4,393 bases of DNA, taken from the IMG/VR virus record IMGVR_UViG_2579778784_000011; one strand, written 5' to 3'. This document shows, in pieces, positions 1 through 4,393 of this stretch (position 1 is the first letter of the stretch; the number at the start of each line of letters is the position of its first letter). Position numbers and translations under genes: made by a program. This DNA comes from a virus (taxonomy: Duplodnaviria; Heunggongvirae; Uroviricota; Caudoviricetes). The notes beneath the pieces are model-generated. The model was not told the DNA's origin. It worked only from the letters and a program-made list of their open reading frames with translations, and ran no database searches.

Positions 1-1734
1 GCACGCAACGCTGAAGCCGCCTCTCAGAGCGCAGCGGCAGCAAAGAAATCAGAAACAGCAGCGGCATCGTCCAGGAATGCGGCGAAAACATCAGAGACGA
101 ATGCAGGTAACAGCGCGAAAGCGGCAGCTTCTTCAAAAACAGCCGCACAAAACGCAGCAACAGCGGCAGAACGTTCAGAGACAAATGCCCGTGCGTCAGA
201 AGAAGCCTCCGCAGACAGTGAAGAGGCTTCCCGCCGTAATGCAGAGTCAGCCGCTGAAAATGCCGGAGTCGCCACCACAAAAGCGCGGGAGGCCGCAGCA
301 GACGCAACAAAGGCCGGGCAGAAAAAGGATGAGGCTCTGTCGGCAGCGACACGGGCTGAAAAGGCGGCAGACCGCGCAGAAGTCGCAGCGGAAGTGACTG
401 CAGAGCCCTATGCGAATATAGTGCCGCCGCTGCCTGATGTGTGGATACCGTTTAACGATTCACTGGATATGATTGCGGGTTTTTCTCCGGGCTATAAAAA
501 AATAGCTATTGGTGACGATGTGGTTCAGGTCGCCAGTGATAAACAGGTTAATTTCAGTCGCGCATCAACGGCAACATATATCAACAAATCTGGCGAACTG
601 AAAACGGCGGAAATTAATGAGCCGCGATTTGAGTGTGATGGCCTGCTTATTGAGGGACAAAGAACGAACTACATGCTCAATTCGGAAAGTCCAGCCAGCT
701 GGGGGAAGTCATCAAACATGGATGTGCCCGAAACCGGGACGGATAGTTTTGGTTTTACTTATGGAAAGTTTGTCTGCAACGATTCTCTGGTTGGGCAAAC
801 TTCGGCTATTAATATGGCATCAATTGCTGCAACAAAGTCAGTTGATGTCTCAGGCGATAACAAGTACGTGACAACCTCATGCCGTTTTAAAACAGAACGA
901 CAGGTAAGGTTACGTATACGGTTTGATAAGTATGATGGTAGTGCAACAACTTTTCTTGGCGATGCGTACATTGATACGCAAACGCTTGAAATTAATATGA
1001 CAGGTGGTGCTGCCGGCAGAATTACGGCACGAGTCAGGAAGGATAAGACCACAGGCTGGATTTTTGCAGAGGCAACGATTCAGGCAATTGATGGTGAGTT
1101 AAAAATAGGCTCTCAGATACAGTATTCTCCTGAGCAGGGTGGGGCAACAGTATCTGGTGACTATATTTATCTTGCCACCCCACAAGTAGAGAATGGGCCG
1201 TGTGTATCATCATTTATTATTTCAGGAGGCAGCGCAACGACAAGAGCCAGTGATTTGGTTAGTATCCCCACCAGAAATAATCTTTATAAGTTACCATTTA
1301 CTTTTTTACTTGAGATTCATAAAAACTGGGATATTGCACCAAACGCCGCACCCCGCGTGTGGGATATAGCAGCAGCCAATACCGGGCAATTAGCAATTGC
1401 AGCAATCAACAGAGGTAGTGGTAAGTTATATATGAGTCTGTCAAACCCTTCAGGCTCGTATGTTAATAGCGCAGCGACAGATGTATTTGCAGAGAAAACC
1501 ACATTTGGATGTATTGCAAAAGCTGATGGTCACTTTCATGTGGTGACAAATGGTAAAGCGGTTAATGAAGTTTATTGTGAATATAATGGCGTGACCGCTG
1601 ATAAAAATATCCGATTTGGAGGGCAGACGAATACTGGAGAACGACATCTGTTTGGCCATATTCGCAATTTCCGCATATGGCATAAAGAAAAGCAATTGCA
1701 GCAATCAACAGAGGTAGTGGTAAGTTATATATGA
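1..1734 (+). CDS. side tail fibre protein (Stf-like), 5'-partial at window edge; 3' end frameshifted by a tandem duplication
   Basis: Frame 1 is open from nt 1 with no stop until 1732-1734, so the gene enters the window in progress and the GTG at 394 in the ORF track is internal. The first ~130 codons are an Ala/Ser/Thr/Glu/Lys-rich low-complexity shaft (e.g. AAKTSETNAGNSAKAAASSKTAAQNAATAAERSETNARASEEA), as in lambdoid Stf-type side tail fibres. A less GC-rich C-terminal region follows. The last 14 codons before the stop lie in copy 2 of the 299-bp duplication and are read out of phase. Confidence 0.8.
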   Translation, partial: ARNAEAASQSAAAAKKSETAAASSRNAAKTSETNAGNSAKAAASSKTAAQNAATAAERSETNARASEEASADSEEASRRNAESAAENAGVATTKAREAAADATKAGQKKDEALSAATRAEKAADRAEVAAEVTAEPYANIVPPLPDVWIPFNDSLDMIAGFSPGYKKIAIGDDVVQVASDKQVNFSRASTATYINKSGELKTAEINEPRFECDGLLIEGQRTNYMLNSESPASWGKSSNMDVPETGTDSFGFTYGKFVCNDSLVGQTSAINMASIAATKSVDVSGDNKYVTTSCRFKTERQVRLRIRFDKYDGSATTFLGDAYIDTQTLEINMTGGAAGRITARVRKDKTTGWIFAEATIQAIDGELKIGSQIQYSPEQGGATVSGDYIYLATPQVENGPCVSSFIISGGSATTRASDLVSIPTRNNLYKLPFTFLLEIHKNWDIAPNAAPRVWDIAAANTGQLAIAAINRGSGKLYMSLSNPSGSYVNSAATDVFAEKTTFGCIAKADGHFHVVTNGKAVNEVYCEYNGVTADKNIRFGGQTNTGERHLFGHIRNFRIWHKEKQLQQSTEVVVSYI

Positions 1735-1989
1735 GTCTGTCAAACCCTTCAGGCTCGTATGTTAATAGCGCAGCGACAGATGTATTTGCAGAGAAAACCA
1801 CATTTGGATGTATTGCAAAAGCTGATGGTCACTTTCATGTGGTGACAAATGGTAAAGCGGTTAATGAAGTTTATTGTGAATATAATGGCGTGACCGCTGA
1901 TAAAAATATCCGATTTGGAGGGCAGACGAATACTGGAGAACGACATCTGTTTGGCCATATTCGCAATTTCCGCATATGGCATAAAGAAT
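1392..1989. repeat. perfect direct tandem duplication, 2 x 299 bp (unit 1392-1689, junction base A at 1690, copy 1691-1988)
   Basis: Base-by-base comparison: 1392-1689 is identical to 1691-1988 over 298 bp. The first difference is 1690 (A) versus 1989 (T). Confidence 0.97.
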
Positions 1990-2021
1990 TAAATGACAGG
2001 CAATTAAAAGAGGTCGTATGA
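1731..2021 (+). CDS. displaced tail fibre C-terminal fragment (copy 2 of the duplicated segment in the native phase); likely remnant, not an independent gene
   Basis: Encodes the same 85 residues as copy 1 (MSLSNPSGSY...FRIWHKE), then LNDRQLKEVV and a TGA that overlaps the next ATG (ATGA at 2018-2021). This looks like the original end of the tail fibre gene. Its own ATG overlaps the upstream stop (ATGA at 1731-1734), so reinitiation is possible. Confidence 0.4.
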   Translation: MSLSNPSGSYVNSAATDVFAEKTTFGCIAKADGHFHVVTNGKAVNEVYCEYNGVTADKNIRFGGQTNTGERHLFGHIRNFRIWHKELNDRQLKEVV

Positions 2022-2296
2022 AAGATTTAACTTTGAAGTTTCATGACAAACTGCAGTTTAAGGCCTTCCTGTCATCTCTTGGCTGGGCGGAAGATGAAGA
2101 CCTCCAGAATAAACTGTTAGTTGATGAAATTGGTTTCACCTACACAGAAACAGGGGTAACAGAAGAGGGAGAACCTGTCTGTATCCGGAATGATGGTTAT
2201 TTTGTCAACATTCGCATTCTTGATGACTTGTTTGATGTTTCTGTATTCTCTGATTATGTCGTGGAGCTGGAAACACCGCTTCGGGAATGGAGCTGA
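2018..2296 (+). CDS. hypothetical small acidic protein (92 aa), translationally coupled to the tail fibre gene
   Basis: ATG at 2018 overlaps the native-phase tail fibre stop (ATGA), with AAGAGG a few nt upstream. 92 aa, strongly acidic (about 20 Asp/Glu versus 8 Lys/Arg). No motif recognised. Its 3' two-thirds lies inside the 271-bp duplication. Confidence 0.6.
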   Translation: MKDLTLKFHDKLQFKAFLSSLGWAEDEDLQNKLLVDEIGFTYTETGVTEEGEPVCIRNDGYFVNIRILDDLFDVSVFSDYVVELETPLREWS

Positions 2297-2618
2297 AAGG
2301 AGGAAATAATGGATATAAGCCCCTTACTTCATGCACTTTGTGCTGTATCTTGGCTGGGCGGAAGATGAAGACCTCCAGAATAAACTGTTAGTTGATGAAA
2401 TTGGTTTCACCTACACAGAAACAGGGGTAACAGAAGAGGGAGAACCTGTCTGTATCCGGAATGATGGTTATTTTGTCAACATTCGCATTCTTGATGACTT
2501 GTTTGATGTTTCTGTATTCTCTGATTATGTCGTGGAGCTGGAAACACCGCTTCGGGAATGGAGCTGAAAGGAGGAAATAATGGATATAAGCCCCTTACTT
2601 CATGCACTTTGTGCTGTG
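2077..2618. repeat. perfect direct tandem duplication, 2 x 271 bp (unit 2077-2346, junction base A at 2347, copy 2348-2617)
   Basis: Base-by-base comparison: 2077-2346 is identical to 2348-2617 over 270 bp. Position 2347 is A where the base after copy 2 (2618) is G. Confidence 0.97.
2331..2567 (+). CDS. chimeric duplicate ORF created by the 271-bp duplication; probably not an independent gene
   Basis: MHFVLY, from the start region of the downstream gene, is fused in frame to residues 21-92 of the 2018-2296 product. No Shine-Dalgarno precedes its ATG. The strong RBS+ATG at 2297-2311 instead opens a 19-codon ORF ending at 2363-2365. Confidence 0.3.
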   Translation: MHFVLYLGWAEDEDLQNKLLVDEIGFTYTETGVTEEGEPVCIRNDGYFVNIRILDDLFDVSVFSDYVVELETPLREWS

Positions 2619-2868
2619 GCTGCGCAGATACTGGTTGGTCTTTTTTACCGGAAACTGGGCTTACGGAGCGATAGCCGGTTGTACGTTCTTCATTGCGCGT
2701 GAACATACCCAGGCAGAATATCGCTGGATTGAAATGTTCGGGCATGGCAAGCGAATGAATATGCCGTGGTGGGGCGGTTTTGATCCGCGTGCTTGGGATG
2801 TGGCAAGCCTGATGGATTTTGCTGTGCCGGTGGTGGCGTGTCTGCTGATCTGGATGTTGATCCGTTAA
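2602..2868 (+). CDS. hypothetical small membrane protein (88 aa, two predicted transmembrane segments); start uncertain
   Basis: Open frame with enterobacterial-like codon choice (CTG, GTG, CCG, GCG frequent). Two hydrophobic stretches long enough to span a membrane (WLVFFTGNWAYGAIAGCTFFIA and VASLMDFAVPVVACLLIWMLI), with Arg-Arg before the first. No Shine-Dalgarno before ATG 2602; a strong AAGGAGG-N5-ATG lies at 2568-2582 in a different frame. Confidence 0.55.
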   Translation: MHFVLWLRRYWLVFFTGNWAYGAIAGCTFFIAREHTQAEYRWIEMFGHGKRMNMPWWGGFDPRAWDVASLMDFAVPVVACLLIWMLIR

Positions 2869-2919
2869 ATATAAAAAGTAAAAAGCCGCAGTAACTTGTC
2901 ATGATAGGATACTGCGGCT
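2869..2919 (-). terminator. candidate intrinsic terminator for dinI (hairpin plus U-tract on the minus strand), possibly bidirectional
   Basis: Inverted repeat AGCCGCAGTA (2884-2893) / TACTGCGGCT (2910-2919): a 10-bp stem with a 16-nt loop. On the minus strand the stem is followed by UUUUACUUUUUAUAU (complement of 2869-2883), about 65 nt past the dinI stop. The loop is long for a canonical terminator. Confidence 0.45.
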
Positions 2920-2985
2920 GGCTGGTTAACTTTCGATAGTGCGAGTATTGAATGATTTCCAGCCGTTACTGATTTTACGTGCTAA

Positions 2986-3234
2986 TTAGTGAACAAACCA
3001 CTCGTCAGCAGACTCCCAGGTATCTTTCAGAGTTTCCTGAACAAAAGTTTTAGCTGAATCTTTATCGGCGGTGCGCGTAACAGAAAGGCCATCGTTGCTG
3101 GTGGCTTTTACGATCACCTCTACATCGTCATAACGTTTACTGATGCGTCGGGTTAATTCTTCCTTTAACGCATCCACAGCACCGTTTGGCATTTTAGTCA
3201 TTTTTTCTTTGGCTATGCAGATCTCAATACGCAT
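2986..3234 (-). CDS. dinI: DinI-family DNA-damage-inducible protein (82 aa)
   Basis: The translation [82 protein letters not shown] matches my memory of E. coli DinI at many positions (MRIE..IAK, GA.DAL, EL.RRI, LSV, QET, TWESAD.WFV). It is preceded by an AGAGGG Shine-Dalgarno and two LexA boxes. Not verified by search. Confidence 0.9.
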
Positions 3235-3249
3235 AAAAGTCCCTCTATA

Positions 3250-3265
3250 CTGTGTTTGTATACAG
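3250..3265 (-). promoter_or_regulatory. LexA box (SOS operator), promoter-proximal, overlapping the likely transcription start of dinI
   Basis: CTGTGTTTGTATACAG on the + strand matches the CTGT-N8-ACAG core of the enterobacterial LexA consensus TACTGTATATATATACAGTA, with flanking TA...TG. It lies 16-31 nt upstream of the dinI ATG. Confidence 0.75.
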
Positions 3266-3270
3266 TGTTA

Positions 3271-3299
3271 TTTTTAACTGTATGGATAAACAGTGTCAA
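3271..3299 (-). promoter_or_regulatory. candidate sigma70 promoter of dinI (-35 TTGACA at 3294-3299, -10 TAAAAA/AAAAAT near 3270-3276, minus-strand sense)
   Basis: Minus-strand sequence is cTTGACA-ctgtttatccatacagt-TAAAAAt: a perfect -35 hexamer, a 17-18 bp spacer and an A/T-rich -10 (4/6 match to TATAAT). The -35 hexamer overlaps the integrase stop codon (3296-3298). Confidence 0.5.
3278..3293 (-). promoter_or_regulatory. second LexA box, occupying the -35/-10 spacer of the dinI promoter
   Basis: CTGTATGGATAAACAG (CTGT-N8-ACAG), 12 bp from the first box and directly abutting the TTGACA -35 element. Confidence 0.75.
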
Positions 3300-4393
3300 G
3301 AGGTCTTATTTCTGCTCCTTTGGAGCTCTTCAAAACGATTATGTAAAGATTTCGGATACAGTTCGGTATATACCTGCCATAGCACGTTTAATGAACGATG
3401 CCCTGTAACCTGAGCGACTTCCTCAATACTAAAACCAGCCTCAAATAAGCGACTTGCCCCTTCTCTACGCAAATCATGGTATCGCAGATCTTTAATACCT
3501 AATTTGCTTCTTACCCTCTGAAATCCTGCAGTAACAGAAGTGCTGTTATATGGAAAAATGAATTCCGATTTTTTGGGCTGTCGTTGGACGATATCCCAGG
3601 CTTCCCCAAGCAAGGCTACTTTCATGTGGTTGCCTTCCTTTTTGCGTGGATCTTTCCTGTCTCTTACGAGTATAGATTTTTGTTCCTGGTCGAGATCTTC
3701 CCATCGTAACCGGCATACTTCTCCGATCCGCATACAGGACCACACAGAAAATTTGAGGATATCAACGAACGGAATTTTTGAGCATTTATGAGTAGATCGT
3801 TGTTGAAGGCCTTCAATGAGCATGTCCAGTTCATCAGATGCTGGTCTACGATTACGACGGTTTGATTTACCAATCAAACCAAGTTTAAGTAGATATGGGC
3901 GAGCGCTTTTCGCCGGGTTTGATGTGTAATTAATTCCGTATACAGGTTTGGCCGCATCCAGAACACTGCCAAGATAACTAACATCGTGGCTGACTGTTGC
4001 TGGACCTGCACCAGCGTTGTTTCTTAGCCTGCAATGTTCAATTACGTCATTTTCTGTCAGTTCAGATAGTTTGATCGCGGAGATGTCACTATCCATAAGC
4101 AGTTCCAGCACATATCTTTTAGTACGGCCTGCTTTACCTCCGGCATTTGGGTCATTTAAATATTTGTGTAGTAAGTCACGGACTGTAAGTCCGTCAACTG
4201 CATTTGATGATGGAATGCCATATAGATCTAATTCCATCACTTTCTGTGTTCCCCATGTTTTGGCATGAGCATGTTTAGGGAATGTTTTGCTTTCCCTGTA
4301 AGTGATAACACCTTTTTCTTTGATAATCACATTACAGCGATAGCGTGGTGTGCCATCGGATTTTAGTCGTTTCTCTATGTTATAGTACGCCAT
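3296..4393 (-). CDS. int: phage integrase, tyrosine recombinase family (365 aa); ATG at window edge, apparently complete
   Basis: C-terminal catalytic-domain signature in order: Arg in MRIGEVCRLRWEDL, Lys in KKEGNHMKVAL, HDLRREGASRL (His-x-x-Arg), GHRSLNVLWQVYTEL (His/Trp and the presumptive catalytic Tyr). Size is typical of lambda-like integrases, and it sits next to a tail module and a moron region. Start codon is at 4391-4393; an upstream extension beyond the window cannot be excluded. Confidence 0.9.
   Translation of the reverse strand: MAYYNIEKRLKSDGTPRYRCNVIIKEKGVITYRESKTFPKHAHAKTWGTQKVMELDLYGIPSSNAVDGLTVRDLLHKYLNDPNAGGKAGRTKRYVLELLMDSDISAIKLSELTENDVIEHCRLRNNAGAGPATVSHDVSYLGSVLDAAKPVYGINYTSNPAKSARPYLLKLGLIGKSNRRNRRPASDELDMLIEGLQQRSTHKCSKIPFVDILKFSVWSCMRIGEVCRLRWEDLDQEQKSILVRDRKDPRKKEGNHMKVALLGEAWDIVQRQPKKSEFIFPYNSTSVTAGFQRVRSKLGIKDLRYHDLRREGASRLFEAGFSIEEVAQVTGHRSLNVLWQVYTELYPKSLHNRFEELQRSRNKTS

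Follow-up and report, generated by a model that had tools for sequence, protein, structure and literature searches.

We conclude that the two overlapping reading frames found behind a strong ribosome-binding site (RBS) in this stretch of 4,393 nucleotides (hereafter the window, meaning the whole stretch of DNA that was analysed) are one gene and not two. Positions 2568-2868 encode a conserved small inner-membrane protein of about 95 amino acids with three predicted helices, a member of PHROG 1443 (phage-21 gp24-like), and the window holds a disrupted copy of this gene. The most likely reading of the run of six Ts (T6) at which the two frames cross is that of a genuine and inherited mutation, either loss-of-function or strongly hypomorphic, in a single 95-codon gene for a dispensable accessory membrane protein. 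It is thus probably an ordinary single-base homopolymer frameshift, real and inactivating, in a known but uncharacterised prophage gene.

Layout of the locus

The window is the end of the right arm of a phage-21/mEp460-like lambdoid prophage, in which the membrane-protein gene sits between the side-tail-fibre genes and dinI/int. Its features are as follows, in order of position:

1-2021: side-tail-fibre gene, 3' two-thirds
1392-1689 and 1691-1988, plus strand: two exact copies, in tandem, of a 298-base segment at the 3' end of the side-tail-fibre gene, separated by an additional A (1690)
2018-2296, plus strand: gene for a 92-aa protein, PHROG 1361, intact in copy 1 of the duplication
2077-2346 and 2348-2617, plus strand: two exact copies, in tandem, of a 270-base segment, separated by an additional A (2347) and repeating the 92-aa gene's 3' part together with the RBS and the opening 38 bases of the membrane-protein gene
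2297-2368, plus strand: duplicate RBS (2297-2303) and ATG (2309) opening a chimeric ORF of 19 codons (2309-2368; MDISPLLHALCAVSWLGGR), a by-product of the duplication
2568-2574, plus strand: AAGGAGG, the Shine-Dalgarno sequence that truly belongs to the membrane-protein gene; phage 21 has the identical RBS in its annotation (CPT_21_24)
2580-2702, plus strand: truncated reading frame of 40 codons and a stop; the true N-terminus, with the first helix, is encoded by codons 1-22, and codons 23-40 are out of frame past the extra T
2602-2604, plus strand: fortuitous out-of-frame ATG opening an ORF of 88 codons, with no Shine-Dalgarno; this start is not conserved
2641-2646, plus strand: T6 homopolymer, the frameshift point; T5 in 47 of 47 relatives, hence one T inserted
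2647-2868, plus strand: rest of the gene, wild-type codons 23-95 and stop, shifted to +1 with respect to the start codon
2986-3234, minus strand: DinI-family gene (Pfam PF06183)
3296-4393, minus strand: tyrosine integrase

Read directly, the sequence has AAGGAGG at 2568-2574, a five-base spacer (AAATA) and an ATG at 2580-2582, which opens a frame of 40 codons with the product MDISPLLHALCAVAAQILVGLFYRKLGLRSDSRLYVLHCA and a stop at 2700-2702; these coordinates agree exactly with the original prediction, as do the six Ts at 2641-2646. The longer frame (2602-2868; 88 aa, beginning MHFVLWLRRYWLVFFTGNW) had been described as starting without a Shine-Dalgarno sequence, and this is confirmed: the 17 bases preceding ATG 2602, TATAAGCCCCTTACTTC, contain no such purine-rich site. 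The RBS and ATG at 2568-2582 are no chance arrangement, but the genuine RBS and start of a conserved gene. It had further been proposed that one T fewer would fuse the two frames into one protein. The fusion does give a single protein of 95 amino acids, as in mEp460_4F5, but the junction reads ...ILVGLFTGNWAYG... with one F, and not GL-FFTGNW as had been written.

In the window a run of five Ts (T5) in codons 21-22 (CTT TTT) has gained one T, which would have arisen by replication slippage within the homopolymer. Ribosomes starting at 2580 therefore synthesize 22 correct residues, corresponding to helix 1, followed by 18 wrong residues, and stop at 2700; the 18 unrelated residues after helix 1 are YRKLGLRSDSRLYVLHCA. 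What the product lacks is the conserved core (FIAREHTQAEYRWI...NMPWWGGFD), and with it the last helix. The 88-codon ORF is the remainder of the gene in the +1 frame, and is probably not expressed, since ATG 2602 has no RBS and lies inside the translated upstream frame. The position after the tail-fibre genes fits that of an accessory ("moron") gene, which would account for the tolerance of its loss.

The chromosomal setting is visible in a near-identical metagenome contig (k127_2055, described below), which places the prophage beside dusA, pspG and dnaB in the E. coli chromosome. The integrase abuts dusA in this contig (locus L050, 5386-7919), and the element is probably a dusA-integrating lambdoid prophage. 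Between the convergent membrane-protein and dinI-like genes there is an 18-base inverted repeat with abutting arms (AGCCGCAGTAACTTGTCA / TGATAGGATACTGCGGCT; 2884-2919), which may form a bidirectional terminator hairpin; a terminator consensus scan over 1950-3350 called no site, the repeat having no T tail.

Close and distant relatives of the gene

The relatives considered were phage 21, mEp460_4F5 and 45 IMG/VR contigs (n=47). The pattern used to scan IMG/VR consisted of the RBS and start only, the T-run being left out to avoid selecting on it, and the length of the run was then measured at each locus. This census gives T5 in all 47 relatives, in agreement with the DNA alignments, and the ORF from MDISPLL is uninterrupted over 95-110 codons in 46 of them. 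Escherichia virus mEp460_4F5 (LR595868) and phage 21 (OL657228) are the nearest records, and in both the same RBS and ATG open one gene of 95 or 97 codons; in the DNA alignment with the relatives the only difference at the site is their T5 against T6 in the window. Once its duplications are collapsed, the window differs from mEp460_4F5 over 3.8 kb by 28 substitutions and exactly one indel, the T of the T-run. A separate scan with the T5 context recovered 44 IMG/VR contigs. The locus therefore has the make-up of a homopolymer frameshift pseudogene, with intact relatives, one indel in a mononucleotide run and a premature stop 18 codons past the shift.

Such close relatives are too similar to show selection, and distant homologues were therefore examined. 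The repaired 95-aa protein, for which 568 homologues were found, matches the PHROG 1443 profile over residues 1-95 of 97 positions (E = 1.7e-57). An intact gene of this family would have one unbroken ORF, leading from the MD start through to the C-terminal helix; in the window the frame breaks after codon 22. An alignment of homologous proteins had been proposed as the means of deciding which N-terminus is conserved, and it is the N-terminus of the MDIS frame that is conserved across genera: it is kept in full-length homologues of 57-70% identity, found in Aeromonas, Comamonas, Citrobacter, Leclercia and Salmonella, whose alignment begins at residue 1. Distant homologues retain the N-terminal pattern MDxxP..H.......Q...G, and in an alignment of 70 sequences D2 is invariant and at least 90% of the sequences share P5, H8, A9, Q16 and G20. 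In the Aeromonas and Comamonas genes, the two that were read as DNA, the MD start is preceded by an AAGGA/AAGGAG of its own, and the corresponding codons contain no T-run. For a homologue with 93% identity the AlphaFold model, for which 70 homologues were used, has a mean pLDDT of 92 and comprises three helices, the first of which spans residues 4-23.

Among database proteins, by comparison, MHFVLW is the start only where a gene was called on a frameshifted allele (P0055, P0061 and the exact 88-aa product). Since the MDIS start is conserved and MHFVLW starts are confined to damaged alleles, the true start is that of the MDIS frame; ATG 2602 is fortuitous, and the sixth T is derived, an insertion. 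The original prediction had held against a fusion that frame 1 has the more host-like codon choice upstream of the run; this comparison concerns 13 codons and is overridden by the conservation at the protein level.

Origin of the sixth T

The inserted T is a rare allele. The exact repaired 95-aa protein is found on 292 contigs and the exact 88-aa product on two, both of them ENA metagenome contigs, one of which was read. This contig (ENA ERZ915809 k127_2055; 54.6 kb, human gut metagenome) has T6; over 1691-4393 its sequence matches the window at 100% identity, and in 1-1689 it differs from it at four positions; neither duplication is present and its tail-fibre gene is intact. Compared with mEp460_4F5 over 4.4 kb it has two indels, of which T6 is the only coding one, the other being in a T-run upstream of the tail-fibre gene. 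The window and the two ENA contigs are the only places where the T6 allele was seen. Exact-pattern scans with the T6 context gave no match in IMG/VR, in the GTDB representative genomes or in the JGI metagenomes; an 80-base T6 query had no 100% match among 5426 complete E. coli genomes, T6 being absent from the 1316 that hold this stretch. Other lengths of the run do occur. T4 alleles are present on 12 Logan contigs, with products of the form MELKGGNN...FTGNW (P0022), and a T7 allele is present in E. coli SCU-484 (NZ_CP051744, locus L057; HHJ53_RS13340), where the gene is flagged "frameshifted" by PGAP. The T-run may thus be a minor indel hot spot or a recurrent site of sequencing error, and some of the T4 and T7 variants may themselves be errors.

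The two tandem duplications, which were missed in the original prediction, bear on how far the sequence of the window can be trusted. The A at each junction (1690 and 2347) matches neither flank. The 298-base duplication shifts the frame of the tail-fibre gene ten codons before its normal stop, giving a fibre protein without its last 10 residues and with 14 unrelated ones. The RBS and ATG of the membrane-protein ORF, with its first 38 bases, lie at the end of copy 2 of the 270-base duplication (2567-2617), and the same duplication also creates a 78-codon ORF (2331-2567), for whose 78-aa product there is no database record. Neither junction was found in the relatives, IMG/VR, the GTDB genomes, the JGI metagenomes or the complete E. 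coli genomes; in the latter each junction's two halves are separated by 270 or 298 bases, as a single copy predicts. A 96-aa ORF at 1731-2021 is on record elsewhere, only because many prophages have a tail-fibre gene broken in other ways, and is thus uninformative about where the window comes from. The duplications have the look of contig-overlap joins that were left unresolved and padded with one base; alternatively, they may be of very recent date. They are not the cause of the frameshift, since the metagenome contig has T6 without them. At positions 78 and 1391 the window has T where both mEp460_4F5 and the near-identical metagenome contig have C; position 1391 is the base directly before the first copy of the 298-base duplication.

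Could the real DNA have T5 and an intact gene, the sixth T being an error of sequencing or assembly? Single-base homopolymer indels are a classic error on several sequencing platforms, the window contains two artefact-like tandem duplications within 1.3 kb (298 and 270 bases, each with a stray A) that are found nowhere else and reduce trust in the source sequence, and the T7 variant of SCU-484 adjoins another gene flagged as frameshifted. However, the MEGAHIT-style contig k127_2055 shares T6 on a background identical over 2.7 kb and free of the duplications, and T6 is the sole indel of the collapsed window, and the sole coding indel of the metagenome contig, against the closest phage, mEp460_4F5. 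The occurrence of the same rare indel on the same background in two independent assemblies argues for an inherited allele, even if the window's source and that contig might derive from related samples. An error, one of the explanations listed in the original prediction, is therefore unlikely, and the genuine frameshift mutation listed beside it is favoured by the independent contig; we infer that T6 is a true mutation and that its product is non-functional.

It is very unlikely that the T-run acts as a weakly mutable switch or as a low-efficiency +1 slip site permitting residual or reversible expression of a prophage membrane protein. If it did, the protein could be, for instance, a superinfection-exclusion or receptor-masking factor encoded beside the tail-fibre genes, and the T4, T6 and T7 alleles would reflect selection for switching the gene off in some hosts. 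A contingency (phase-variable) locus, in which slipped-strand mispairing in the T-run toggles the membrane protein, is highly improbable. T4, T5, T6 and T7 alleles are all present in public data, but the off-length alleles are very rare (2 against 292 contigs on the same background, none of the 47 relatives and 1 of the 1316 complete genomes with the stretch), the homologues of Aeromonas and Comamonas lack the tract, and a tract of five bases is short for phase variation.

Recoding, either by a programmed +1 ribosomal frameshift of the prfB or antizyme type or by transcriptional slippage on the T-run to give a regulated full-length protein, is extremely improbable. The sequence CUU_UUU_U (2640-2646) would let a P-site tRNA-Leu or tRNA-Phe re-pair perfectly one base downstream, and the +1-shifted product would have the exact wild-type sequence GLFTGNW. 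Against this, the split arrangement is not conserved, the run being T5 in 47 of 47 relatives and missing in the distant Aeromonas and Comamonas homologues. The zero-frame codons following the slippery codon, UUU and UAC, are both sense and neither slow nor stop. There is no stimulator: the upstream CUGGUUGGU is not Shine-Dalgarno-like, RNA folding of the 74 nt downstream is no stronger than that of shuffled sequence (z = +0.58) and an Rfam search gave no relevant match. Efficient slippage of RNA polymerase in E. coli needs roughly 8-9 Ts, and six are too few for it. The programmed +1 shift raised in the original prediction is thus unsupported, T6 not being conserved and a stimulator being absent, and any restoration of full-length protein by slipping would be at background level.

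Finally, the idea of two genes, in which a 40-aa leader or small membrane peptide overlaps an independently translated 88-aa protein from MHFVLW, has a negligible probability: both ORFs are open in the window and the frame-1 codons upstream of the run (CTG twice, GTG, CGC) are more host-like than those of the other frame (ATA twice, TTA, CTT three times), but T6 is not conserved, ATG 2602 has no RBS, the exact 40-aa product is absent among roughly 15 billion recorded proteins, MHFVLW starts are confined to proteins called on frameshifted alleles (P0055, P0061), and it is in the MDIS frame that residues are conserved between genera.

The protein family and comparison with known systems

Genes of this family are present in about a third of the complete E. 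coli genomes (1903 of 5426), and the core of the protein, REHTQAEYRWI...MPWWGGFD, is strongly conserved. For the repaired protein Pfam returned only a sub-threshold PhoR match (E = 0.078), and NCBIfam and PADLOC no family match; Foldseek against PDB and BFVD yielded no structural neighbour, the best E being 0.75. The literature on mEp460 and phage 21 contained no functional study of the membrane-protein gene that we could find. A paper on prophage sRNAs was also checked for a link to the gene and proved unrelated. Among the distant homologues, of which two loci were read (L058, 5001-5309; L059, 5001-5303), no consistent gene neighbourhood was found: the Aeromonas homologue is chromosomal and non-prophage, between a pirin gene and a RIO1 kinase gene, and the one in Comamonas is part of a prophage and follows a GpJ-like tail-tip gene.

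For annotation, the two ORFs of the window are best treated as one frameshifted gene (a pseudogene), and neither as a leader peptide with a membrane protein nor as a recoding site. The duplications need a read-level check before any inference is made about the tail-fibre gene. The protein family itself, which is widespread and has a confident three-helix model and no assigned function, is of mild interest, more so than the frameshift.

The gene of the window shares its RBS, start and coding sequence with CPT_21_24 of phage 21 (UMO75439.1, "putative membrane protein", with annotated RBS) and with VUD37822.1 of mEp460_4F5, both PHROG 1443 and about 98-99% identical to it in DNA. The position is also the same, after the side-tail-fibre gene and the 92-aa gene, and the mEp460_4F5 protein is identical to the repaired product of the window. 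The window differs from both in having T6 instead of T5, with the frame broken after codon 22, and in carrying an extra 271-base duplicated insert just upstream. The T7 allele of SCU-484 and the T4 alleles of P0022 offer a second comparison: the same gene has lost its frame at the same homopolymer, whereas the length of the run and the direction of the shift differ from those in the window. With the prfB-type +1 site (CUU UGA C with an upstream Shine-Dalgarno-like element) the window shares the slippery motif CUU U, at which re-pairing of the P-site tRNA in the +1 frame is possible. However, the window has neither an in-frame stop or rare A-site codon nor an upstream stimulator, and the split is not conserved; the likeness is thus limited to the slippery tetranucleotide.
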